From the sequence record PZ445405.1: a stretch of DNA of 50,126 nt; one strand, given 5' to 3'. Below the pieces are notes generated by a model. It did not search any database, was not told where the DNA came from, and saw only the letters and a program-made list of their open reading frames with translations. Below, piece after piece: positions 64-46,505 of the stretch. Origin of the DNA: a phage. The stretch's first letter is position 1. Every line of letters begins with the position of its first letter. The translations under genes were made by a program, and so were the position numbers.

Positions 64-540
64 ATGAATTGGGCTGAATTTTTTAGATACGAAGATGGAA
101 ATCTGGTAAGGGTTACCACAACCTCAAGTAGAGCTATTGAGGGCATGGTTGCTGGAAGCTTGTCTGGCAATGGCTATCTGCACATAAGAATAGGCGACAG
201 GCGTGTAAAAAACCATCTCATAATTTGGGAGATGCACAATGGAAGGATACCAGAAGGGATGGAGATAGATCATATCAATCACATAAAGACAGATAACAGG
301 ATCGAGAATTTAAGGCTCGTAAGTCACAAACAGAACCTATCAAACGCATCTCTTAGGTCAGACTCGTCAACTGGTGCGAGTGGCGTTAGTTGGAACAGAA
401 ACAGGCAGAAGTGGCACGCTTATATAAAGTCTAACTACAAGAGGATGCACATAGGATTTTTTGATTCCTTTGATGATGCCGTAGCAGCAAGAAAGAAAAA
501 GGAGATTGAATTGGGATTTCATGAGAATCACGGAAAATAG
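64..540 (+). CDS. HNH homing endonuclease (HNH + AP2-like DNA-binding domain), copy 1
   Basis: Motif EIDHINHIKTDNRIENLRLVSHKQN; paralogous to ORFs at 30756-31235 and 37032-37517 (all start MNW..); ATG at 64 preferred over GTG at 55. Confidence 0.8.
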   Translation: MNWAEFFRYEDGNLVRVTTTSSRAIEGMVAGSLSGNGYLHIRIGDRRVKNHLIIWEMHNGRIPEGMEIDHINHIKTDNRIENLRLVSHKQNLSNASLRSDSSTGASGVSWNRNRQKWHAYIKSNYKRMHIGFFDSFDDAVAARKKKEIELGFHENHGK

Positions 541-611
541 CACGAATTGCTAAACGACTAGGCCACGGATGGCGTATAGTTACCTTACCAAAACGAGAGG
601 AGAAAAGATAA
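537..611 (+). promoter_or_regulatory. Conserved promoter cassette: box ATAGCACGAATTGCTAAA, 22-bp spacer with small hairpin, TATAGT (575-580), leader AAACGAGAGGAG
   Basis: Palindrome TAGCA-cgaat-TGCTA overlapping the TAG stop of the upstream gene; same architecture repeated about 20 times. Confidence 0.6.
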
Positions 612-992
612 ATGACAAAAAAATCAAAGGCTGTATATCTTGGCAACACCGAAGGAGAGTATTATGGTTTCACTGTAGGGAATGAATATGATGTTCACAA
701 TTATGAAACTGAAGATAACTTCATTGGTACTTTTGGTGATGATGGTGGTTATCGTCACATCAAGAACGGAGCATTCCACAAGTTCGAACTCCTCGAGGAT
801 TATGATTTCGTAACTGAAAGCGAATGCGCAGTCATGCCCCTTAGTTCCGATAAACAACCAGAGCTTAGATATTTCATAAACGGTCATGAGTTTAATAAGA
901 TTGAGTTCGAAAATGTGCGCTATACTGTAAATCAACTTGATGAGGGCGGCGTAAAATGCGACACAATCAAGTTCGAAGTAAAATTCGAGTAA
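612..992 (+). CDS. Hypothetical small acidic Tyr/Gly-rich protein (cassette-driven)
   Basis: ORF directly behind the cassette with SD GAGAGGAG; motif GEYYGFTVGNEYDV resembles the ORFs at 15739 and 34351. Confidence 0.5.
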   Translation: MTKKSKAVYLGNTEGEYYGFTVGNEYDVHNYETEDNFIGTFGDDGGYRHIKNGAFHKFELLEDYDFVTESECAVMPLSSDKQPELRYFINGHEFNKIEFENVRYTVNQLDEGGVKCDTIKFEVKFE

Positions 993-1013: not shown

Positions 1014-1038
1014 AGCCCCCACATGGGGCTTTTTTATT
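1014..1038 (+). terminator. Rho-independent terminator
   Basis: AGCCCC-cacat-GGGGCT followed by TTTTTTATT, then conserved TTATTGGAGAAA RBS junction. Confidence 0.6.
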
Positions 1039-9883: not shown

Positions 9884-10540
9884 ATGGCCCATCTCAGCAA
9901 TGGCACTCAGGTCTTCGTAGAAGGCTCTAGGGGAGCTACAATTGACGTAACTGCAATTTCCAACGCAGTTACCCCTGTTTTAACTGTATCTGACGCCTCT
10001 GGCTTGGTTGTTGGTGATTACCTGCTTTTCACCTCTTCTGCTTCCACGCTTCTGGCTGACAAGCAAGTTCGAGTTACCGAAATCTCTGGCACGTCAGTAA
10101 CTGTTGAAGGTATTGATACCTCTAGCACTACAAAGTTCCCAGCCGGTTTAACTGGTGAAGTTGTTAAGATTACTTCTTGGTTCGAAGTTCCGTGCGTTCA
10201 GGATGTATCTACTGATGGCGGCGAACAGCAGTTCGTTAACTTCCAGTGCCTGTCAGATGACCGTGAACAGCAGATTCCGACTTATAAATCTGCGGTAACT
10301 AACACCTTTACCTTTGCTCATGAGTACACTAACCCGGTTTATCCGGTTCTGCGTAACTATGATGAGTCTGGTCAGGTTGTTGCGATTCGTCTGTTCGTAC
10401 CTAGAGCCAGCGAAATGCGTTTGCAGTCCGGCACTATCGCTTTCAACGACACCCCGACCATTGGCGTTAACGAAATCGAAACGGTATCCATCGCAGTATC
10501 CATTCGTGGCCGCCTGTCCTCTGTGGCAGCAGAAGTTTAA
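9884..10540 (+). CDS. Major tail protein (putative)
   Basis: 218-aa Ser/Thr/Val-rich ORF upstream of the chaperone and tape measure genes, followed by a strong terminator. Confidence 0.55.
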   Translation: MAHLSNGTQVFVEGSRGATIDVTAISNAVTPVLTVSDASGLVVGDYLLFTSSASTLLADKQVRVTEISGTSVTVEGIDTSSTTKFPAGLTGEVVKITSWFEVPCVQDVSTDGGEQQFVNFQCLSDDREQQIPTYKSAVTNTFTFAHEYTNPVYPVLRNYDESGQVVAIRLFVPRASEMRLQSGTIAFNDTPTIGVNEIETVSIAVSIRGRLSSVAAEV

Positions 10541-10573: not shown

Positions 10574-10650
10574 ATAGCACTTTTTGCCAAAGATCTTATT
10601 CAACTTTGCTGTATAGTTACCTCATCGAAACGAAATGAGAGATTAAAGAA
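10574..10650 (+). promoter_or_regulatory. Promoter cassette, T-rich-centre variant (ATAGCACTTTTTGCCAAA, 22 bp, TATAGT 10612-10617, leader CATCGAAACG)
   Basis: Same geometry as the canonical cassette; drives the lipoprotein ORF. Confidence 0.55.
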
Positions 10651-11037
10651 ATGAAAGCAATCATCGCAATTATGGCAACCTTGTTACTCGCTGGCTGTAA
10701 CTCAGATAAGGTAAAGACACTTAACGTTGATCTGGCATCAAACGAATGCAAGAACATCGTATACAACGCGACGGTTAACAATGAATCATTTACTCAGCTT
10801 TCATTCAAACACCCAGAGCTCAAAGATGCCGTTATGTACGTGGCGCACATTGAATGCACGAAATCTGTTAACAATTTTACCCGCGGCGTTGTAGTTGAGC
10901 ACAACACAACATTGGCAAAAGTATCAAAGCCTAGTGACGCTTCAATCGCGATGGTTTATACTAATATCTACAATTTAGAAGGTTTCGCTAAGGAAGTTGG
11001 CGAGAAGCTGGCTTACTCACGCGTTGTTATGAAATAA
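10651..11037 (+). CDS. Lipoprotein (moron inside the tail operon)
   Basis: Signal peptide with lipobox LLAGC (MKAIIAIMATLLLAGCNSD); own promoter cassette and flanking terminator. Confidence 0.6.
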   Translation: MKAIIAIMATLLLAGCNSDKVKTLNVDLASNECKNIVYNATVNNESFTQLSFKHPELKDAVMYVAHIECTKSVNNFTRGVVVEHNTTLAKVSKPSDASIAMVYTNIYNLEGFAKEVGEKLAYSRVVMK

Positions 11038-14868: not shown

Positions 14869-14872
14869 ACTA

Positions 14873-14896
14873 AGCCCCATTAGGGGCTTTTTTTTA
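14873..14896 (+). terminator. Rho-independent terminator
   Basis: AGCCCC-atta-GGGGCT followed by T8 and TTATTGGAGAAA. Confidence 0.65.
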
Positions 14897-14908
14897 TTGG
14901 AGAAATAT

Positions 14909-15664
14909 ATGTTAAGTCCAAAGTTTGAAAATCAGTTGCAAAGCCTTTTCCCTGGCGAAATTGTGACACTAATCCAGGTTGATGGCACCTCCTTTGGCGG
15001 TCTCGTTTATTCGTTCCATAATGAGAACATTTCATACACGCCAGAGGAAATCATGCTGGCCCAGATGAATGGCGATCCACTACCAGAGAAGACAATCACA
15101 TTTCGCGGAGAGGAATATGGACCTCGCCCATTCGGAATCTCTGGTATCAATATGACCTCTGACGGAAAGGCCAACAAAGTGACGCTAACAGTATCAAACG
15201 TAGACCAGCGAATTAGCGCATTGATTCGAACATACAATGGACTGGTTAGGGCTAAGGTTACTATCTGGATTACTACGCGAGACAACATCAACGAAGATGG
15301 AAGCATTGCTGATGGGGACTATCGCAGGTTCGTTTACTTCATTGAGAGACCAAAGCAGGTTGATTACAAAACGGCATCATTTGAGCTTAGCTCACCTATG
15401 GATATGGATGGAATTTACATTCCTGCGAGACTTGTTCAGTCTGTTTGCTATTTTGCCTCCAGGGGATGGTATCGAAGTGGTAATGGGTGTTCATATGCTG
15501 GTAACAGATACTTTAACAAGGATGATGAGCCGGTGGCAGACCCTTCATTAGACTTCTGTGCGGGAACTGTTAACAGCTGCAAGCTTAGATTCGGTGAGAA
15601 TAATCAGTTGGATTTTGGCGGTTGCGCGGCGGCAAGCCTTCAGGCAAAAGCGAATCAAAGCTAA
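14909..15664 (+). CDS. Minor tail protein (lambda gpL-like) with C-terminal Cys cluster
   Basis: C-terminal cysteines (CYFASRGW..GCSYAG..FCAGTVNSC) as in the lambda L iron-sulfur motif; position. Confidence 0.75.
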   Translation: MLSPKFENQLQSLFPGEIVTLIQVDGTSFGGLVYSFHNENISYTPEEIMLAQMNGDPLPEKTITFRGEEYGPRPFGISGINMTSDGKANKVTLTVSNVDQRISALIRTYNGLVRAKVTIWITTRDNINEDGSIADGDYRRFVYFIERPKQVDYKTASFELSSPMDMDGIYIPARLVQSVCYFASRGWYRSGNGCSYAGNRYFNKDDEPVADPSLDFCAGTVNSCKLRFGENNQLDFGGCAAASLQAKANQS

Positions 15665-15738
15665 ATAGCACGAATTGCTAAACACCAACGCGACGGATGG
15701 CGTATAGTTACTTCATCGAAACGAGAGGAGATAAATAA
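15665..15738 (+). promoter_or_regulatory. Canonical promoter cassette (box 15665-15682, TATAGT 15703-15708, leader CATCGAAACGAGAGGAG)
   Basis: Near-identical to the cassette at 537-611; TTGCTA to TATAGT spacing 22 bp. Confidence 0.6.
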
Positions 15739-16056
15739 ATGAAAGCTAAATTTATTGCAAAATCGGAATGGTACACTGGTGAGTACGAATTTACCACTGG
15801 AGAGGATTACGAACTTAGTCACCAAGGCGGCAACTTCTATTCAACAATAGACAATAACGGTCTTTTGGCTTACTTTGAAAATGGTCGATACTATGAATTT
15901 GAGATCCTCAAAAATGAATCAAAAGAGAAGGAGATGACTTACAGAATGAATGGGGATGTGGTTACTGAATCATTCTTTTATGACAGGCTAATGGAGGCTG
16001 AGGCACTTAAGTCCAGAGGGGTTTCTGTATTTATAGATTTTGAGGTTAGTTTTTAA
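15739..16056 (+). CDS. Hypothetical small acidic Tyr/Gly-rich protein (cassette-driven moron)
   Basis: Motif TGEYEFTTGEDYEL similar to ORFs at 612 and 34351. Confidence 0.45.
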   Translation: MKAKFIAKSEWYTGEYEFTTGEDYELSHQGGNFYSTIDNNGLLAYFENGRYYEFEILKNESKEKEMTYRMNGDVVTESFFYDRLMEAEALKSRGVSVFIDFEVSF

Positions 16057-16079
16057 TAATCGAAATTGGTGTTAAACTA

Positions 16080-16106
16080 GGTCAATCGATAGATTGGCCT
16101 TTTTTA
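16080..16106 (+). terminator. Rho-independent terminator
   Basis: GGTCAATC-gata-GATTGGCC followed by TTTTTTATTGGAGAAAA. Confidence 0.55.
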
Positions 16107-16117
16107 TTGGAGAAAAC

Positions 16118-16876
16118 ATGTTAACACCCAAAGTCAAGCTGCAAATCTTCCAGCACGCAAAAGAAGCCTACCCGCATGAGTGCTGTGGAGTTGTTACGCA
16201 GAAGGGCAGGGCGCAGAAGTATCACAGAATCACAAACTCAAGCAAAGACCCTGAAAACGAGTTCATTCTTGATTCAAATGAGTATGCAAATATCACCTTT
16301 AACCTCGCAGATAATGAGTCGATTGTGTACGTAGCTCACTCTCACACAGGCGACGGCGCCACAACAAGACCTAGCCCAGCGGACATTTGCAGCTGCAATG
16401 AATGCGAGATTCCTTATGTTATCGTAAGCATTCCTGAGGGTGACATGAGAATCCTTGAGCCATCAACCATGCCACTGATTGGTCGCCCGTGGGGTCTGGG
16501 TAGCTTTGACTGCTGGGAGTTGGTGATGGCATTTCACAAGAAATACGGCGTAAAACTGAATGACTACCGCGTCAATTACCCGTGGTGGGAGAAACGGTAC
16601 AATGAAAATATCTATGATGACAACTGGATTAAGGAAGGATTTGAGCTAGTAAAAACTTCAGATATTCCTATTGGCTCCATGATTATGATGCAGGTGCAAA
16701 GCGAGGTGACAAACCACGCCGGAATCTACATTGGCAACAACAGATTTATTCATCACCTTTATGGTAAAATGAGTTCCGTTGATATCTACTCCGATTACTG
16801 GCGAGAGCGCACAGTGCGAATTGTTCGCCATAAGGATTTACCAGAGGATGTAATTTATGACCCAGAAACTGATTGA
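16118..16876 (+). CDS. Tail assembly protein (lambda gpK-like; JAMM metalloprotease + NlpC/P60 domains)
   Basis: JAMM motif HSHTGDGATTRPSPAD and NlpC/P60-type Cys (DCWELV) plus His residues. Confidence 0.8.
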   Translation: MLTPKVKLQIFQHAKEAYPHECCGVVTQKGRAQKYHRITNSSKDPENEFILDSNEYANITFNLADNESIVYVAHSHTGDGATTRPSPADICSCNECEIPYVIVSIPEGDMRILEPSTMPLIGRPWGLGSFDCWELVMAFHKKYGVKLNDYRVNYPWWEKRYNENIYDDNWIKEGFELVKTSDIPIGSMIMMQVQSEVTNHAGIYIGNNRFIHHLYGKMSSVDIYSDYWRERTVRIVRHKDLPEDVIYDPETD

Positions 16877-24763: not shown

Positions 24764-24958
24764 ATGACCTACTACATTATCAAAGAGAAAAACAACGCAC
24801 TGTTCGGTGACTGCTACTTTGGTGGCCCTGCCGGATACACAACGGATAAGAACGAGGCTGACAGATTCGAGACTAAAGAAGAAGCCCGAGATGTGCTGAC
24901 TGGTTACTTCACAGTAGAAGATATGAAATCGGTTAAGGTTGTTGAGGTGAAGGAATAA
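24764..24958 (+). CDS. Hypothetical small protein (64 aa)
   Basis: ATG with SD GAGAG downstream of the leader; motif GDCYFGGPAGYTTD. Confidence 0.4.
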   Translation: MTYYIIKEKNNALFGDCYFGGPAGYTTDKNEADRFETKEEARDVLTGYFTVEDMKSVKVVEVKE

Positions 24959-25927: not shown

Positions 25928-26002
25928 ATAGCACGAATTGCTAAAGACAAAATTAACGAGTGGGGTATGATTGCCCCATCAACAACGAACGAGGTTAAAA
26001 TT
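25928..26002 (+). promoter_or_regulatory. Canonical promoter cassette (box 25928-25945, TATGAT 25966-25971, leader CATCAACAACGAACGAGG)
   Basis: Box overlaps the stop of the upstream gene; 22-bp spacing conserved. Confidence 0.55.
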
Positions 26003-29771: not shown

Positions 29772-29789
29772 ATAGCACGAATTGCTAAA
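29772..29789 (+). promoter_or_regulatory. Orphan palindromic box ATAGCACGAATTGCTAAA without downstream -10 or leader
   Basis: Perfect box lying between two minus-strand genes, 24 nt from the tail-fibre start codon. Confidence 0.4.
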
Positions 29790-29811
29790 GTGGATTGTAT
29801 CATCTTTAGGG

Positions 29812-29842: not shown

Positions 29843-30759
29843 AGTAGTTCGCTTGCCTTATAGATTCTCTTTCTTATTCCTGACTTGAAAAAATTATCAT
29901 CATTTGGCATTACCACATCAATATTGCGATCGTCAGCAACGGCGAGTAAATCAAGATCGTGGCGAGTACAAGCGATGCGTAACTTGTATTTTCTAAGCGC
30001 GTAAGCAACCATTTCCATGTTGTAGATGGAGTAGCAAACAAGCACGCAGCGGTTGCCAGTAGCAATGTGAACACGATAGCCGTCAATGAGATTATCGACC
30101 AGATAAGCGTAATCATCATCCTTAAAGGAACCAATAACAGAAACAGATTGGCGAGTATAATCTTTTGCAGCATAACTAACACCTCCATATTCATTGATAA
30201 ACATTACATTACACATTTCTTCTGATATGCCGTCACTATAAGCCATAAAGCACGGCACTGCGTGTATTAGTTCGCCTGATTTTGTTCTGCCAACATCAAA
30301 GCCAAACTCGCTATAGATTCCCTCGTATGTACTGAGCGGAGTTGATTCTACTCTTTCAGTCCTTTCCATTATCTCTAAGCATCTTTCGTGGTCAATCTGA
30401 GCGCCCATTTTGTAGATCTGGGTTCTTGATGCTTGCTTGTTTGCTTTAACTATAACCTCAATTGGTGTTAAGTTCAGCCAGTCACCAAGCAAATTTACTG
30501 AATCGGCGAAGGACGATCCAGTGCACTTCATGACCCATCCTATACCGGAGTCACTCCCGCATTTCGAACAAACTGCCGCGCCATTTCCTTTTTCACTGCC
30601 TATTTCGTCGGTAAATCTGAATCTGTCAGTGCCAAAGCAGTATGGGCATGGTCCGTGCTTCTTACTTAGGTGTCTATCATTCCAACCAAGTTCCTTTGCA
30701 TAAAATGATTTCCACAATCCGGCCATCTTAGGTATAACTTCATTCTTATCGTAATTCAT
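29836..30759 (-). CDS. DNA primase-like protein with zinc-ribbon
   Basis: Cys motifs CPYCFG..CSKCGSD in the N-terminal region; ATGA coupling with the upstream HNH gene; replication gene context. Confidence 0.5.
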   Translation of the reverse strand: MNYDKNEVIPKMAGLWKSFYAKELGWNDRHLSKKHGPCPYCFGTDRFRFTDEIGSEKGNGAAVCSKCGSDSGIGWVMKCTGSSFADSVNLLGDWLNLTPIEVIVKANKQASRTQIYKMGAQIDHERCLEIMERTERVESTPLSTYEGIYSEFGFDVGRTKSGELIHAVPCFMAYSDGISEEMCNVMFINEYGGVSYAAKDYTRQSVSVIGSFKDDDYAYLVDNLIDGYRVHIATGNRCVLVCYSIYNMEMVAYALRKYKLRIACTRHDLDLLAVADDRNIDVVMPNDDNFFKSGIRKRIYKASELLN

Positions 30760-31235
30760 TTGCTTAACCCGTGATTTTCGTGAAAGTTGTATTTTCTCTC
30801 TGCTTCAATTCTTACTTTATACGCCTGCTCTGGAGTATCGAAGTTCCCAAGGTGTAACTGCTTACCGTCAACCTTGATGTGAGCCTTAAATTTTCCGTGA
30901 TTTAGCTTTGCCACTCCACAATAACCAGTTGTTGATAAAACGCTAAGCCTGCAATTTCTTGAGTTACCTTGATTTGTTGTTACTCTTAGGTTTTCTATTC
31001 TGTTATCTAATTTGTTATGGTTTATATGATCAATGTAGTCGCCATTTTGAAGTTCTCCATTAAACATCTCCCACACAACTCTATGTACGTAAGTCCTAAA
31101 GCCATTAACAGACACTTTGTAATAGCCAGATGTAGATAGTGAGTTGCACTCATCGCCAACCTTAACACGTCTTGCAGTGCTAATCTTCCAATGCAATTTG
31201 CCATCTACATAGTAAAAATAATCATGCCAGTTCAT
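30756..31235 (-). CDS. HNH homing endonuclease (HNH + AP2-like), copy 2
   Basis: Motifs DHINHNKLDNRIENLRVTT and paralogy to the other two copies. Confidence 0.8.
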   Translation of the reverse strand: MNWHDYFYYVDGKLHWKISTARRVKVGDECNSLSTSGYYKVSVNGFRTYVHRVVWEMFNGELQNGDYIDHINHNKLDNRIENLRVTTNQGNSRNCRLSVLSTTGYCGVAKLNHGKFKAHIKVDGKQLHLGNFDTPEQAYKVRIEAERKYNFHENHGLSK

Positions 31236-33856: not shown

Positions 33857-34272
33857 ACATAACAGATAAAGAAGATTACATTGAGTTTTACCCGGGCCCG
33901 GTTAAGTATTGCCCTAAAGAGGATGACGAGCAAATCTTTTGCTCTGATTGGGTTAAGTATCATTACCCTCAGATTGTTTACTGGCACACGGTTAATGAAT
34001 CGATGAAGACCATTGGACAGGCAAGAAAAGACCAGGCCAAAGGTTTGCTTAAGGGGGTTTCGGACTGCTTATTCCTGATACCTGAATCACTTCGTGGTAA
34101 ATACCCTTTTGGAGCCATAGAGCTAAAAAGGGCCGGGAAGACGCAGGCGAGTCCAGTCAGCGACGAACAGAAGTCCTTCCTTAAGAGCGTCAGAGAATCG
34201 GGCGGCTTCGGGGCTGTAGCTTACGGACGTGAGGGTTTTCTTGCGGCATTCAAAGAAATGATTTCAAAATAG
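33853..34272 (+). CDS. VRR-NUC domain nuclease (putative)
   Basis: Motif GVSDCLFLIPESLRGKYPFGAIELKR (D..E.K core); ATGA coupling to the helicase gene. Confidence 0.55.
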   Translation: MNITDKEDYIEFYPGPVKYCPKEDDEQIFCSDWVKYHYPQIVYWHTVNESMKTIGQARKDQAKGLLKGVSDCLFLIPESLRGKYPFGAIELKRAGKTQASPVSDEQKSFLKSVRESGGFGAVAYGREGFLAAFKEMISK

Positions 34273-34350
34273 CACGAATTGCTAAAGACGTTTCGGTGAG
34301 TTGGTGTATTATCTATTCATCGAAACGAAACGCACAAAGAGAGAAACAAA
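34269..34350 (+). promoter_or_regulatory. Canonical promoter cassette (box 34269-34286, TATTAT 34307-34312, leader CATCGAAACGAAACG)
   Basis: Box contains the TAG stop of the upstream gene; 22-bp spacing. Confidence 0.55.
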
Positions 34351-34641
34351 ATGGCTACTATCTATACTGGTAAATTCTACGAATCACGCAAAACTGGTTA
34401 TGAGTATGAATTAGTAATAACCCCAGAAGGTTATGTACTTGATGATGGTGAAGGGTACGCATTCGAAGTTAGCCCGACTTACAAAGATGATTTAGAAACT
34501 GTTAAAAACGCATTTGGCGAAAAATTTGATGTTATTGATGATGGTGATGGCTACGCATTCGAAGTTAGCCCAACCTACAAAGATGATTTAGAAACTGTTA
34601 AAAACGCATTTGGCGAAAAAATTGATGAGGTATCAGAGTAA
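34351..34641 (+). CDS. Hypothetical acidic protein with internal 32-aa tandem duplication
   Basis: Two 96-bp direct repeats (34441-34536 and 34537-34632) encoding DDGEGYAFEVSPTYKDDLETVKNAFGEK twice. Confidence 0.5.
   Translation: MATIYTGKFYESRKTGYEYELVITPEGYVLDDGEGYAFEVSPTYKDDLETVKNAFGEKFDVIDDGDGYAFEVSPTYKDDLETVKNAFGEKIDEVSE
34441..34632 (+). repeat. Tandem 96-bp in-frame duplication (2 units, about 93% identical)
   Basis: Direct comparison of the two units shows only about 7 substitutions. Confidence 0.8.
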
Positions 34642-37031: not shown

Positions 37032-37517
37032 ATGAATTGGCATGATATTTTTGAATACAACGATGGCATTCTTTATCATAAAGTTAAGTTATGTATAAGA
37101 AATGATGTTAACGTTGGTGATATTGCTGGGGGGGGCGTTAGGCAAAACGGCTATCACTACGTGAATTACAAAAATAAGTTTTACAAAAGGTCAAGGGTTG
37201 TATGGGAGATGTTTAATGGAGATATACCTGAGGGATTTGTCATTGATCACGTCAACCATGACGCGACAGATGACAGGATAGAAAACCTAGAGTGCAAGGA
37301 GCGCAGGGATAACATGGTTAATGTAAAGCTAAGGATTGATAGCTCCTCTGGTGTAACTGGTGTAGCAAGAAAGAGCGGTAATAAGTGGAGGGCATACATA
37401 ACAATCATGGGTAAGCAGAAGTCCAAGAGCTTTAACACGTTTGAGGATGCTTGCGCACAGAGGATTGAATGGTCGGTAACTCATGATTTTCACCCAAATC
37501 ACGGTGGAAAATACTAA
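37032..37517 (+). CDS. HNH homing endonuclease (HNH + AP2-like), copy 3
   Basis: Motif VIDHVNHDATDDRIENLE and paralogy to copies 1 and 2. Confidence 0.8.
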   Translation: MNWHDIFEYNDGILYHKVKLCIRNDVNVGDIAGGGVRQNGYHYVNYKNKFYKRSRVVWEMFNGDIPEGFVIDHVNHDATDDRIENLECKERRDNMVNVKLRIDSSSGVTGVARKSGNKWRAYITIMGKQKSKSFNTFEDACAQRIEWSVTHDFHPNHGGKY

Positions 37518-37602
37518 ATAGCACTTTTTGCCTAACCCATGCCGTAGAAATGCGGCATAATCACCACATCGAAACGAGATTAACTAAACGAGGAAACGCA
37601 AG
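37518..37602 (+). promoter_or_regulatory. T-rich-centre cassette (ATAGCACTTTTTGCCTAAC, hairpin, CATAAT 37556-37561, leader CATCGAAACGAG)
   Basis: 22-bp spacing; hairpin ATGCCG-tagaa-ATGCGGCAT. Confidence 0.5.
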
Positions 37603-37779
37603 ATGACTAAAATGATTTATTGCACCAAGAACAACTCCAAGACTCTGCCATTTACAGTCAACAATCCGTATAACGCAGAGTACCAGGGTGATGGATATTA
37701 CAAGATTTATGGCGACGATATGACGCACATCTTAGCACCGATTGATGGTTCGCTGGTTGAATTTATTATCGCAGACTAG
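37603..37779 (+). CDS. Hypothetical small Tyr/Gly/Asp-rich protein (58 aa)
   Basis: ORF below the track cutoff found by reading downstream of the cassette; SD GAGG; motif YQGDGYYKIYGDD. Confidence 0.35.
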   Translation: MTKMIYCTKNNSKTLPFTVNNPYNAEYQGDGYYKIYGDDMTHILAPIDGSLVEFIIAD

Positions 37780-37805
37780 CACAGAAAAAACATAGCGTTA
37801 AGCAA

Positions 37806-37831
37806 GGGGGGCCTTTTGGCTCCCCTTTTTT
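37806..37831 (+). terminator. Rho-independent terminator
   Basis: GGGGGGCC-tttt-GGCTCCCC followed by TTTTTTA. Confidence 0.6.
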
Positions 37832-37909
37832 ATGCTTCTTTTCCGAGAGGCGCTAATGTATGATTATTTTACTAACTTAAACATTGACAAATAGATAAAG
37901 GTGGGTCAC

Positions 37910-39338: not shown

Positions 39339-40922
39339 TCACCCCAGCAGTCGTGGATTAATGTAAACTTTATCACCAATCAGGCATGTATAGTTTTTCT
39401 CATCTAACATCGGCAGCAAGTGGTCTTTAATCTTTGTCATCACTCCAGCCTGAGACTCGAACGGCTTAACCTTGCGCGCAGCCTCATACAATGAACGAAT
39501 GCCAACTACGCCTTTCCCGTTCTTTCCTTGCTTGATAAGGATATCAATCAGCTTATTCATCTCGGCATTGTCGCCAGCGTGACCAGCGGCGTTAGCAGAT
39601 GACAGATAAGTCTTGCTAAGCTCCTGGAACATGATTACAGCCTCTTGCATTGTGTCCAGTCCAATCTCTCTGGACTTCTGCGGGCTTCCGCCATTTGGGT
39701 TAAACCAGTTACGGACAGTGTGAATAACTGCGGCAATCCTGATAGCCTGCTTATCGAACTTGCCCAGCGCGCCGCGCAACATAGTATGTGAATACTTACC
39801 GCCATCAGCAAGATGGGGCTCCATTTCCTGACGTGCACGGTTGAGATATTTCATCGCTGAGTTACTCACTGTCAGCTTTACTTCCTGCTCGCTCATGATT
39901 TCGTGAACCAAGCGGAAGTAGTCAGCCTTCAGTCCGCTGTCAATTGGCTCGTATGTTGACTCTCCATTCTCATCAACGAATACACGTTCGCCCAGGAAGG
40001 ACTTTTCACGCACAAGCAGAAAACGCTCCGACACACCGATACCACGCGCACCAGCATTCATAATGGCGTTGATTGTTTCGTCCTGCGCAATTACCGAGAT
40101 GCAACCCATAGCAACGAAACTCATGTTGTTCTCTGCGTTCGCACGCGCGATAGATACGTTACCAGCATCCCATGCTTTAAGCACGAGTTCACTGTTTGTT
40201 TTCTTTGAGCCATCTCCATAGGTCATGCCCAGAAGTGAGTTCACGCTCGTCGCCTCATCCGAGATTACTGCGAAGTTTCCCTGGCGGTTGTTTATTCGCG
40301 CAAGTCCCTCAGGCGTGGTGTCGGATACGGGGAAAACGATATCGCATAGCTTCTCGAGTTTCTCCTCCAACTCCTCTTTCTCTTCAAAAAGTGAAGCCAT
40401 CTCTGAAGGAGATTTTTCCTGCTTCATCTCTTTGGATAATGCAGATAGTTTGGCCATAATCTTTTTGCGCTCGCGTTTTCGCAATTCATTTAGTCGCTCA
40501 GTCTCGGCAATCATCGGGGCAATAGAAAGTGAGTTAATCGCTGATTTACCGGTCGATGGAGGTTGACTTGTAACTACGTAAAGAGATGTTGGCTGCTGCG
40601 TTCCGTGATACTCAACAGTAAAGCGGCCCAGCATAGCAGCGGAAATGCAACCCAAAAAGTGCATATAAGCTGAAGACTCCGGGAACTGAACAGAACGAGC
40701 AATGTTGGCTGACAGTCTACCAACAACGTCAACATCATTTCCGAGCGAGATTACAGGATACTTGTCATTGGCCGCATCAATCTCGACCGGTGCTTTCCAG
40801 AATGACTGAGACTGGCGATAGCCATTAGCATTGATAGCCACGCGCAGGGGTGGGAGGTTTTCTGCGGCAGCTATTGCCATAACTTGTTCAACAGATAGTT
40901 TATCTTCGTTGAAATCAAACAT
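39339..40922 (-). CDS. Replicative P-loop NTPase (primase-helicase / SF3 helicase-like)
   Basis: Walker A PSTGKS and Walker B-like AVISDEAT; N- and C-terminal regions shared with the paralog at 43766-44293. Confidence 0.6.
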   Translation of the reverse strand: MFDFNEDKLSVEQVMAIAAAENLPPLRVAINANGYRQSQSFWKAPVEIDAANDKYPVISLGNDVDVVGRLSANIARSVQFPESSAYMHFLGCISAAMLGRFTVEYHGTQQPTSLYVVTSQPPSTGKSAINSLSIAPMIAETERLNELRKRERKKIMAKLSALSKEMKQEKSPSEMASLFEEKEELEEKLEKLCDIVFPVSDTTPEGLARINNRQGNFAVISDEATSVNSLLGMTYGDGSKKTNSELVLKAWDAGNVSIARANAENNMSFVAMGCISVIAQDETINAIMNAGARGIGVSERFLLVREKSFLGERVFVDENGESTYEPIDSGLKADYFRLVHEIMSEQEVKLTVSNSAMKYLNRARQEMEPHLADGGKYSHTMLRGALGKFDKQAIRIAAVIHTVRNWFNPNGGSPQKSREIGLDTMQEAVIMFQELSKTYLSSANAAGHAGDNAEMNKLIDILIKQGKNGKGVVGIRSLYEAARKVKPFESQAGVMTKIKDHLLPMLDEKNYTCLIGDKVYINPRLLG

Positions 40923-43289: not shown

Positions 43290-43769
43290 ATGAACGAGAA
43301 AGTAACATTGGGCCAAGTGATTCGTGAGATGGTGAAAGCAGCGCTTAAGTCTGAGGACAAGCAGATCAGCGTGACACTCAACAAGATTGAGAGCCTTATC
43401 GGCGCCGAGGAGGGTGGTCTAAATAAGCTTAAGAGCTCATACATCTACAATACAACGGCTCGCATGCCTGAGTTGAGAGATGCCGGACTGAAGGCGACTC
43501 ACCACTATGATGAAGAAAGGGGTGTTAATGAATATACTGGGAGTGAGATACTTGGAGACAAAAAGCTTGTTATTAAACTAATTCCAGGCTCGGCAAACAT
43601 TGGAATCAGGAAGAAGACCAACGACGCGATCAAGGATGAGGCAATCACTGAGTTCAAAGCCAGGATTTCTAAGGTGATGCCAGACCTTTCTGCGTATGAA
43701 GGTGAGGCCCTTGCAGCCGCTATGAAGGCCATTAAGGATTACCGTTTGATTATTGAGGAGATTAAGTGA
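43290..43769 (+). CDS. Hypothetical protein (159 aa), likely immediate-early
   Basis: First gene behind the sigma70 promoter; SD GAGGAG. Confidence 0.45.
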   Translation: MNEKVTLGQVIREMVKAALKSEDKQISVTLNKIESLIGAEEGGLNKLKSSYIYNTTARMPELRDAGLKATHHYDEERGVNEYTGSEILGDKKLVIKLIPGSANIGIRKKTNDAIKDEAITEFKARISKVMPDLSAYEGEALAAAMKAIKDYRLIIEEIK

Positions 43770-44293
43770 TGTTTGACTTTAACGAGGATAAACTGACAGA
43801 AGAGCAGGTAATTGAGATAGCCAAGCAAGATGGGCTGCCGCCGCTGCGAATTGCAATCAATGCTAACGGGTATCGACAGTCAACGGCGTTTTGGGGCTCG
43901 ATTGATACCTCAGGGGTGTATAGTGGTGATGAGCTTGGTGTAATGATTAAAATCATCAGGAAAATGGGAGTTAACGGCAAAGGAGTTGTTGGCGTCAGGT
44001 CTCTATATGAAGGTGCTCGCAAGCTGAAACCATTTGCGGGGCGCGATGGGATGATGCTACTGATTAAGGATAAGCTAATTCCAGAGCTCGACAAGATGAA
44101 TATCACGTGCCTCATTGGCGATAAGATTTACGTCAACCCTGCCTTGACGGATTTAAGCTGGCATCCTAACTTCAAAACTTACGAAGGTGAGCACGCTAGT
44201 AGACTACCATACCACTTGCGGTACACTGAGGAAGAGGTGGAGAAGGCTATTGAGTTCTATCGGAAAGCTAAATCACTAATTATCGCCAAATAG
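43766..44293 (+). CDS. Truncated paralog of the primase-helicase (N- and C-terminal domains only, no ATPase core)
   Basis: N-terminus MFDFNEDKL..LPPLRIAINANGYRQS and segment NGKGVVGVRSLYEGARKLKPF..CLIGDKIYVNP match the two ends of the 527-aa protein. Confidence 0.55.
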   Translation: MMFDFNEDKLTEEQVIEIAKQDGLPPLRIAINANGYRQSTAFWGSIDTSGVYSGDELGVMIKIIRKMGVNGKGVVGVRSLYEGARKLKPFAGRDGMMLLIKDKLIPELDKMNITCLIGDKIYVNPALTDLSWHPNFKTYEGEHASRLPYHLRYTEEEVEKAIEFYRKAKSLIIAK

Positions 44294-44363
44294 CACGAAT
44301 TGCTAAACAATGGATCGGGTAGTCAGCTATGATTACTTCATCGACAACAAAGAGGAAATGAAG
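44290..44363 (+). promoter_or_regulatory. Canonical promoter cassette (box 44290-44307, TATGAT 44328-44333, leader CATCGACAACAAAGAGG)
   Basis: Box contains the TAG stop of the upstream gene; 22-bp spacing. Confidence 0.55.
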
Positions 44364-46293: not shown

Positions 46294-46433
46294 GCTTCAC
46301 TGAATATGTTATAGCATGTGAACGACTGGTCTTTGATATGAAAACTTTCCACTGGTTCATAATTAAAGACTTAATAAAGCCTTACAAGCAGGGCGTTACC
46401 CCAGAGGCGTTTGTTAAGTCATTCTACAAATAG
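46290..46433 (+). CDS. Hypothetical small protein (47 aa)
   Basis: Stop TAG lies inside the next cassette box. Confidence 0.3.
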   Translation: MSFTEYVIACERLVFDMKTFHWFIIKDLIKPYKQGVTPEAFVKSFYK

Positions 46434-46505
46434 CACGAATTGCTAAACGAAGTCGCCACGGATGGCATATAATTACCCTATCAATACAAAGAGAGAGATT
46501 GAGAA
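46430..46505 (+). promoter_or_regulatory. Canonical promoter cassette (box 46430-46447, TATAAT 46468-46473)
   Basis: Hairpin GCCA-cgga-TGGC in the 22-bp spacer, as in the cassette at 537. Confidence 0.55.

Follow-up and report, generated by a model that had tools for sequence, protein, structure and literature searches.

Two diverged paralogous moron genes behind marbox-type, promoter-like cassettes in the structural operons of a Drexlerviridae phage

The phage sequence PZ445405.1, analysed over its whole length of 50,126 nucleotides (nt) and referred to here as the window, carries between two tail-tip genes a small open reading frame (ORF), ORF2, whose product is acidic. An earlier note on this DNA had grouped ORF2 with four other ORFs (ORF1, ORF3, ORF4, and ORF5) as a paralogous family of Tyr/Gly/Glu-rich moron proteins, each encoded directly behind its own cassette. 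All five ORFs were found at the positions given there, and since each has conserved relatives in other phages, they are real genes. Their products are small and acidic, with 12 to 23% Asp plus Glu and a net charge of -3 to -12. Escherichia phage AugustePiccard (Drexlerviridae), listed as Bas01 in the BASEL collection, encodes proteins that are 100% identical to the products of ORF2 (bas01_0024) and ORF1 (bas01_0005). The DNA flanking ORF2 is 86 to 88% identical to that of Rtp-like Drexlerviridae such as BEK6, SU57, and ACG-M12. When the end of the window was joined to its start, one further cassette was completed; thus, the sequence is a permuted whole genome. The features are listed in Table 1.

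Table 1. Positions of the genes, cassettes, and terminators discussed, numbered along the window
Feature	Coordinates	Strand	Description
ORF2	15739-16056	+	bas01_0024; 105 amino acids (aa); PHROG 14592; between tail-tip genes L and K
ORF2 cassette	15665-15708	+	Box ATAGCACGAATTGCTAAAC at 15665-15683, right behind the gene L stop; -10 TATAGT at 15703-15708
ORF2 intrinsic terminator	16079-16100	+	9-bp stem and TTTTTATTGG; then the gene K ribosome-binding site, to 16106
ORF1	612-992	+	bas01_0005; 126 aa; PHROG 14592; between an HNH gene (after the large terminase gene) and the portal gene
ORF1 cassette	537-580	+	Box ATAGCACGAATTGCTAAAC at 537-555, 20-nt variable spacer, -10 TATAGT at 575-580; perfect match to AYNGCACNNWNNRYYAAAY
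ORF1 leader and ribosome-binding site	to 611		
ORF1 intrinsic terminator	1014-1030	+	AGCCCCCACATGGGGCT and T-run; then the portal-gene ribosome-binding site, to 1037
Tail gene L	14897-15664		lambda-L-like tail-tip gene beside ORF2
Tail gene K	16094-16876		lambda-K-like tail-tip gene beside ORF2
ORF4	37603-37779	+	58 aa; phrog_4788, equal to Pfam DUF7244; stand-alone SH3-like protein
ORF4 variant cassette	37518-37561	+	Box ATAGCACTTTTTGCCTAAC; -10 CATAAT
ORF4 terminator-like hairpin	37804-37832	+	G+C-rich, then T-run; judged by eye
ORF3	34351-34641	+	96 aa; phrog_6031
ORF3 cassette box	34269-34287		
ORF5	24764-24958	+	64 aa; phrog_5247; directly upstream of an exonuclease VIII-like gene
HNH genes	55-540; 37032-37517	+	HNH_3 plus AP2-like homing endonucleases; 39-42% identical mutually, with the next row
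HNH gene	30756-31235	-	Third HNH_3 plus AP2-like paralogue
Cassette examples	537-580; 15665-15708; 25928-25971; 44290-44333; 46430-46473	+	
Cassette examples	22258; 23004; 24276; 42692	-	

ORF1 and ORF2 are built as the same unit. In both, the order is a cassette at the stop codon of the upstream gene, a leader carrying a ribosome-binding site, the ORF, a terminator, and the ribosome-binding site of the next gene. The leader after the ORF2 -10 hexamer reads CATCGAAACGAGAGGAG, and the sequence ATTGGAGAAA behind both terminators supplies the ribosome-binding site of the following gene. Hendrix's term moron denotes an ORF that has its own promoter and terminator and has been inserted, together with them, between two genes that adjoin each other in related phages. 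As in the morons of lambdoid and other tailed phages, all three of these features were found in ORF1 and ORF2. Classical morons are expressed from prophages; in contrast, ORF1 and ORF2 lie in a virulent phage, and the portable promoter would be the phage's own marbox-type early promoter.

The junctions at which the two genes lie were compared with those of sister phages. At the L/K junction, 16 distinct sister loci were recovered, with phiEB49, present twice, counted once. Eight of them are empty (gap of 3 to 16 nt), four hold an HNH gene, one holds a Rha-like gene, and three hold a family member. At the large terminase/portal junction, most of the 55 sister loci are empty (gap of 24 to 101 nt); HNH genes were found in four, Rha-like genes in none, and family members in five, one of which is frameshifted (phiEB49 gp57). 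HNH inserts and family inserts both begin with the cassette's box just behind the upstream gene, overlapping its stop codon, and no box within one mismatch was present in the three empty junctions examined. The ORF2 product also diverges fast. It is 75% identical to its closest relative, which lies in the same context on a metagenomic contig where the M, L, K, and I proteins are 84 to 95% identical, and its best match among phage records reaches 42% identity beside flanking DNA of the similarity given above.

Being optional, equipped with their own cassette and terminator, and fast in divergence, the two genes fit the definition of a moron, which argues against an obligatory structural role. 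The description of ORF1 and ORF2 as morons with a promoter-like cassette, a terminator, and insertion at a junction is well supported by sequence comparison, and we regard this anatomical and evolutionary account as very probably correct. In the late operons, terminators were seen at 14872-14889 as well as behind ORF1 and ORF2, each with the same ribosome-binding-site context, TTTTTATTGGAG, behind it. The structural genes thus seem to be set apart by terminators, in keeping with the annotation of T1, which implies read-through or antitermination in late transcription.

The remaining three genes are of another kind. ORF3, ORF4, and ORF5 are 77 to 97% identical in most of the sister genomes recovered and are not variable morons. 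ORF3 has helicase and VRR-NUC genes as neighbors, and ORF5 lies among exonuclease VIII and Erf genes. ORF3 contains a tandem duplication of 96 nt at 34439-34627 (2.0 copies, 94% identical) that repeats a segment of 32 aa; the duplication is specific to the window, and the relatives, of 64 to 66 aa, have a single copy. ORF4 is preceded by a DNA repair exonuclease gene and an HNH gene and followed by holin, endolysin, and spanin genes. A stand-alone SH3 gene between a DNA repair exonuclease gene, sometimes with an HNH gene, and the holin gene was reported in 2026 for 188 of 522 Drexlerviridae, and a lysis role was proposed for it from this co-localization, without experiments (PMC13164509). ORF4 is exactly this gene and has thus already been described. 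ORF5 has a -10 hexamer and leader only, with no upstream box at the correct spacing. The idea that each of the five ORFs is the first gene after a cassette therefore applies to ORF1 through ORF4 and not to ORF5. Likewise, the interruption of structural operons is confined to ORF1 and ORF2, the other three being located in early, replication, and lysis regions, and the moron interpretation of the whole set is narrowed to the same two genes, which have their own cassette and terminator and whose flanking genes are adjacent in sisters.

For the question of common descent, the ten pairs among the five products were aligned by the Smith-Waterman method, each against 2000 composition-preserving shuffles. 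ORF1 and ORF2 align from end to end at 27% identity (BLASTP E = 1e-6), with a z score of 10.4 and an alignment score reached by none of the shuffles (0/2000). The pair ORF1-ORF4 gave a z score of 4.4 (3/2000 shuffles reached the score), and the pair ORF2-ORF4 gave 3.1 (20/2000). For the seven pairs with ORF3 or ORF5, z ranged from -0.33 to 2.75, and at least 29 of the 2000 shuffles reached the score. In an all-against-all BLASTP comparison of the 305 ORFs of the window, ORF1-ORF2 was the only linked pair among the five, which are spread over four PHROG families. The phrog_14592 profile was matched by ORF1 at E = 9.5e-35 (residues 5 to 126 against positions 2 to 116 of 116) and by ORF2 at E = 4e-23 (residues 2 to 105 against positions 3 to 115), and ORF3, ORF4, and ORF5 did not match it.

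ORF4 scored 101 bits against Pfam DUF7244 (E = 3.8e-29), above the gathering threshold of 27 bits. When the family alignments were compared with hhalign, the N-domain of the ORF1/ORF2 family was linked to the DUF7244 family at a probability of 72.7% (E = 3.2e-5, 52 aligned columns), and the score of 26.7 was reached by none of 200 column shuffles (mean, 9.5; standard deviation, 2.2). All remaining family pairs stayed at or below 1.7%. Judged by these comparisons, ORF1 and ORF2 are true paralogues, and ORF4 is probably a remote homologue of their N-domain only. ORF3 and ORF5 are without detectable relationship to ORF1 and ORF2, their resemblance lying within that of composition-matched shuffles. 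The five-member family of the earlier note is thus retained as two paralogues with one domain-level relative; for ORF3 and ORF5, both the shuffles and hhalign indicated a likeness that is compositional at the sequence level.

The architecture of the PHROG 14592 protein was examined in an alignment of 23 members. A conserved N-terminal block is joined by an acidic linker of very variable length to a conserved C-terminal block with the pattern Y-x-[MI]-N-G...I-x-F-E-V-x-F, and 12 invariant columns are spread over both domains. The N-domain is predicted to form an SH3-like six-stranded beta-barrel of about 58 aa, and the C-domain is predicted to form a beta-beta-alpha-beta unit of about 42 aa. 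In the AlphaFold2 model of ORF2 (mean predicted local distance difference test score [pLDDT], 87.6), six strands are followed by a disordered linker at residues 60 to 63 and then by beta-beta-alpha-beta. The ORF4 model (pLDDT, 91.8) has the same strand pattern as the ORF2 N-domain. Among the models in BFVD, ORF2 matched a DUF7244 protein with a target-normalized template modeling score of 0.70, a root-mean-square deviation of 2.9 Å, and 30% identity.

An exhaustive HMMER profile search yielded 41 representatives of the family among 1.84 billion proteins, and in the phage records searched, the family was almost confined to Rtp-like coliphages (Braunvirinae and Rogunavirinae). Two C-terminal subtypes occur. 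In four proteins (P0047-P0050), an N-domain of the ORF1 type is joined to a C-domain of the ORF2 type; this suggests recombination between the domains. Another (P0121) has two N-domains and one C-domain. In P0116, N-domain-like units are repeated in tandem at least six times. This protein is matched by the family profile (E = 3.7e-9) and scores above the Pfam thresholds of both DUF7244 (30.1 bits; cutoff, 27) and DUF6501; the three matches together support a common SH3-like superfamily. For this reason, a weak match of ORF2 to DUF6501, below threshold, may also reflect that superfamily. ORF2 matched DUF3471 weakly and below threshold as well. The family profile also gathers summed weak per-repeat matches in repeat proteins, and two such proteins, P0104 (FN3-like repeats, judged by eye) and P0107 (Big_2 by Pfam), were rejected as homologues.

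The results support a relationship between the ORF1/ORF2 N-domain and DUF7244 at the level of a superfamily, not of family membership, as far as profiles and predicted folds can tell. The predicted barrel is common to both, and their profiles match each other significantly. Unlike DUF7244 proteins (PF23896; KanT1, T1 ST14; PMC13164509), with which ORF4 shares the context of exonuclease, (HNH), SH3, holin, endolysin, and spanin genes, ORF1 and ORF2 have an extra linker and C-domain, lie in structural operons, are variable, and fall below the Pfam model. Within PHROG 14592, a family that is catalogued but unstudied, Rtp22, Jk06 JK_35P, phiEB49 gp37 and gp57, and ACG-M12 gp45 occupy the same two slots in sister phages; ORF2 differs from them in its low identity, as noted, to even the closest protein in phage records. 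Scans of ORF1, ORF2, ORF3, and ORF5 against Pfam, PHROGs, NCBIfam, and PADLOC gave no functional annotation: PADLOC returned no matches and NCBIfam only noise below threshold. Sequence searches of the PDB with ORF3, ORF4, and profiles of the ORF1/ORF2 and DUF7244 families returned only noise. No signal peptide was evident by eye in ORF1, ORF2, or ORF4.

Bas11 Gp54 is the nearest experimentally studied analogue, in which the fold appears to be common and the sequence is not. Gp54 (PDB 9AXB) is a small, non-essential protein that is bound directly by the defence protein CapRelSJ46 and activates it (PMC11578894). It comes from the same phage family, folds into an SH3-like barrel that is likewise small, has six strands, and has a long loop between beta1 and beta2, and is encoded behind a promoter cassette of the same type. 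Among PDB entries, its crystal structure matched the ORF4 (DUF7244) model best. Homology to Gp54 was rejected by sequence (hhalign at or below 1.8%; blastp against the window ORFs, E of 0.11 or worse), and 9AXB was not returned by the PDB sequence searches.

The cassette extends far beyond the five ORFs. Its box, TAGCAC-N4-TGNTAA, occurs in about 22 copies on both strands, and in 17 of the 22 a -10-like hexamer (TATAGT, TATAAT, or TATGAT) lies exactly 37 nt from the start of the box. Further downstream lie a conserved leader, CATCGAAACGAG, and then a ribosome-binding site and an ATG. The box holds 1.63 bits of information per position, the -10 hexamer 1.54, and the 20-nt spacer between them 0.30. 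The genes behind the copies encode an Erf-like annealase, a helicase, an anti-repressor-like protein, a DNA methyltransferase, three HNH proteins, and many small ORFs. Each of the three HNH paralogues has its own cassette; one of them lies directly upstream of ORF1 and another directly upstream of ORF4 (55-540 and 37032-37517, respectively). In the structural region from 1 to 21 kb, copies were found only before ORF1, ORF2, and a lipoprotein gene described below, and a fourth, which spans the end of the window, before the HNH gene at 55-540. Since the copies stand before early, DNA-metabolism, and HNH genes, the cassette is probably a general non-late promoter that marks inserted genes when it lies within late operons. 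It is no mark of a small-protein family.

An ordinary sigma-70 promoter with TTGCTA as the -35 element was ruled out: TTGCTA stands at a fixed spacing of 22 nt from the -10 hexamer and is thus unable to serve as a -35 hexamer. The only -35 candidate in a sigma-70 scan was a weak TAAACA. The box instead resembles the marbox, to which the E. coli activators MarA, SoxS, and Rob bind and the consensus of which is reportedly AYNGCACNNWNNRYYAAAY, a form said to go back to Martin et al. in 1999. In print, the consensus is also given as GCAHWWWWTGYYAAA (PMC6900184), and the box was scanned against both forms. The window contains 6 perfect matches to the marbox 19-mer and 20 with at most one mismatch, compared with 0 and about 1, respectively, in shuffled sequence. 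With the 15-mer at up to one mismatch, Bas01 (Braunvirinae) gave 21 matches, of which 16 have a -10 exactly 20 nt downstream; the corresponding numbers were 21 and 14 for Bas11 (Tempevirinae) and 22 and 15 for T1 (Tunavirinae). Lambda had two matches, neither with a -10 at that distance.

The geometry agrees with the sequence. The box is in the forward orientation, is centered about 40 to 41 bp upstream of the likely start, overlaps the -35 position, and is accompanied by no -35 hexamer. A forward marbox at that position without a -35 hexamer is a hallmark of class II marbox promoters, and host sites derived from chromatin immunoprecipitation, e.g., GCACTTTTTGCAAAA, resemble the box (PMC10268841). 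Like class II marbox promoters of Escherichia coli such as micF, the cassette matches GCAHWWWWTGYYAAA/AYNGCACNNWNNRYYAAAY in the forward orientation with a good -10 and no -35. In contrast to the host sites (PMC10268841), the phage boxes occur in about 20 copies in a 50-kb virulent phage genome and are much more uniform, and the phage cassette has a conserved transcribed leader, CATCGAAACGAG, after the -10. The cassette thus matches a class II MarA/SoxS/Rob promoter in sequence and geometry, from which we infer binding of such an activator.

An experiment in the literature bears on this promoter type. The "native promoter" of Bas11 gene 54 on a plasmid expressed Gp54 in uninfected E. coli (Extended Data Fig. 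1d), and expression was reduced by escape mutations located immediately before the gene (PMC11578894). In the Bas11 genome, gene 54 (39780-40060 region) lies directly behind a perfect marbox-type cassette, consisting of GCACTTTTTGTTAAA, 20 nt, and TATCAT. Expression from a plasmid without infection indicates that phage proteins are not needed for the activity of this promoter. No phage homologue of MarA or SoxS was found in the window by searches with MarA and SoxS sequences and by Pfam scans of ten candidate ORFs, and the annotations of the two sister genomes that were inspected list no RNA polymerase gene. In the literature that could be searched, we found no earlier description of phage promoters of the marbox type. 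On a joint reading of these results, T1-like phages (Drexlerviridae) would run their early, DNA-metabolism, HNH, and moron genes from some 15 to 20 class II marbox promoters per genome, with the constitutive Rob or the stress-induced MarA or SoxS of the host serving as activator of early transcription; the box would form the left boundary of mobile units that insert at hot-spot junctions; and ORF1, ORF2, ORF4, and Gp54 would be Rob-family-dependent early proteins. We consider the chances of this reading to be about even.

Two side observations concern the cassette. A third moron of the tail operon, at 10651-11037 (+) behind a cassette at 10574-10617, encodes a predicted lipoprotein of 128 aa (MKAIIAIMATLLLAGC...). 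It is inserted between an ORF of 218 aa at 9884-10540, which by synteny with Bas11 and T1 occupies the position of the major tail protein, and the ORFs that precede the tape measure gene. The lipoprotein has no match in PHROG, Pfam, or NCBIfam and is a candidate superinfection-exclusion or envelope-modifying protein. In addition, an orphan box, ATAGCACGAATTGCTAAAG, lies at 29772-29790 (+) with no -10 at the proper distance and no gene downstream on the same strand. It overlaps the start of a minus-strand ORF of 849 aa, which synteny with Bas11 and T1 places where the lateral tail fibre gene would lie, and a terminator-like hairpin comes after the box.

Taken as a whole, the observations are best explained if ORF1 and ORF2 are diverged paralogous morons behind a non-late promoter, with a dispensable host- or defence-interaction factor as the best guess for the product; we give this explanation a probability of about 0.6. 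The products would be small cytoplasmic two-domain proteins whose barrel belongs to the same superfamily as DUF7244. The non-late type of the cassette points to early transcription by the host RNA polymerase, and the morons would then be transcribed together with early and DNA-metabolism genes rather than with their structural neighbors. The product may be a dispensable, fast-evolving protein-binding factor that is active in the infected cell, and an interaction with the host or its defences is preferred as a guess over an obligatory virion component. SH3-like domains commonly mediate protein binding, and early-expressed, dispensable protein-binding factors form a class that contains known counter-defence proteins and defence triggers. 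Optional genes with their own promoter and terminator, occurrence at both head and tail junctions, fast divergence, domain shuffling, acidity, and an SH3-like N-domain favor a dispensable intracellular factor. A role in host or defence interaction is suggested for it, as a tentative proposal that would more readily be wrong than right.

Several points weigh against this explanation. The libraries scanned contained no functional homologue of ORF1 or ORF2. The early timing is deduced from the type of promoter, and the binding of MarA, SoxS, or Rob is putative. The separation of ORF3 and ORF5 from the family was obtained by sequence methods. The link to ORF4 depends on the profile-profile probability of 72.7% and on predicted structures, and direct Pfam scans of ORF1 and ORF2 fall short of DUF7244. 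Finally, the family is labeled "virion structural protein" in RefSeq and PHROG (PHROG category "head and packaging"), a label that the RefSeq record of ACG-M12 ties to similarity with phiEB49 gp37.

This label, together with the location of the genes within head and tail gene clusters, raises the alternative that ORF1 and ORF2 are accessory virion proteins, e.g., decorations of the head or the tail tip. However, the genes are missing from about half of the close relatives, in which the flanking structural genes are otherwise near-identical, and this absence argues against an essential structural role. The same slots are otherwise occupied by HNH or Rha-like genes. Since the family occurs at a head-gene junction as well as a tail-gene junction, location is a poor guide to function. 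Both genes have a terminator of their own and a promoter of non-late type, and the products have no signal peptide evident by eye and no likeness to known virion folds. A virion role is therefore considered unlikely.

The alternation of both junctions between empty, HNH-occupied, and family-occupied states would also be expected of selfish passengers, i.e., inserts that destroy an HNH target site or hitchhike on homing and whose product brings no specific benefit. Consistent with this, ORF1 and ORF4 each lie directly behind an HNH gene in the window, and the box that opens the HNH inserts, directly behind the upstream gene, also opens the family inserts. However, the ORFs are intact and keep 12 invariant residues over both domains despite wide divergence, which argues for selection on the protein. 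The frameshifted phiEB49 gp57 shows that decay is visible when it happens. This alternative, too, appears improbable.

A role of the SH3-like proteins as auxiliary lysis or cell-wall-binding factors could be drawn from ORF4, which lies directly upstream of the holin, endolysin, and spanin genes and seems to have its domain in common with ORF1 and ORF2, and from the lysis role proposed on co-localization in 188/522 Drexlerviridae (PMC13164509). However, that proposal is itself a hypothesis. Between ORF4 and the holin gene lies a terminator-like hairpin, ORF1 and ORF2 are distant from the lysis genes, and no signal or signal-anchor-release (SAR) sequence is evident by eye in ORF1, ORF2, or ORF4, so that access to the periplasm is doubtful. 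We consider a lysis role highly unlikely for these proteins.

Descent of all five ORFs from one common ancestor, which their small size, acidity, Tyr/Gly/Glu-rich composition, and beta-hairpin-like motifs and the cassettes before ORF1 through ORF4 might suggest, is extremely improbable and largely refuted at the sequence level by the four different PHROG families, by the values for ORF3 and ORF5 (hhalign at or below 1.7% against everything; z at or below 2.75), and by the Tyr/Gly/Glu motif itself, a generic beta-strand pattern so non-specific that the profile also picks up FN3-like and Big_2 repeat proteins.

Elsewhere in the genome, an ORF of 175 aa at 43766-44293 (+), assigned to phrog_7327, resembles the two ends of the 527-aa DNA helicase encoded at 39339-40922 (-) (phrog_2373). 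Its first 42 residues are 74% identical and its last 90 residues 54% identical to the helicase, as if the core were missing.

Here, a supposed family of five was reduced to a two-member moron family and one domain relative. New, although modest, are the link at the level of a domain, the way in which HNH genes and family members alternate in the same slots, and the correction of the five-member claim; the marbox identity of the cassette is the more surprising result. The family is linked to a group of small Drexlerviridae proteins with SH3-like folds, among them Bas11 Gp54, which a bacterial immunity protein is known to sense directly. The "virion structural protein" label of the databases should be regarded as doubtful, and bas01_0005 and bas01_0024 are concrete candidates to be screened as counter-defence proteins or triggers in BASEL, a collection in wide use. 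If the marbox reading is true, it would explain the early transcription program of T1-like phages and would tie phage gene expression to the regulators of antibiotic and oxidative stress in the host.

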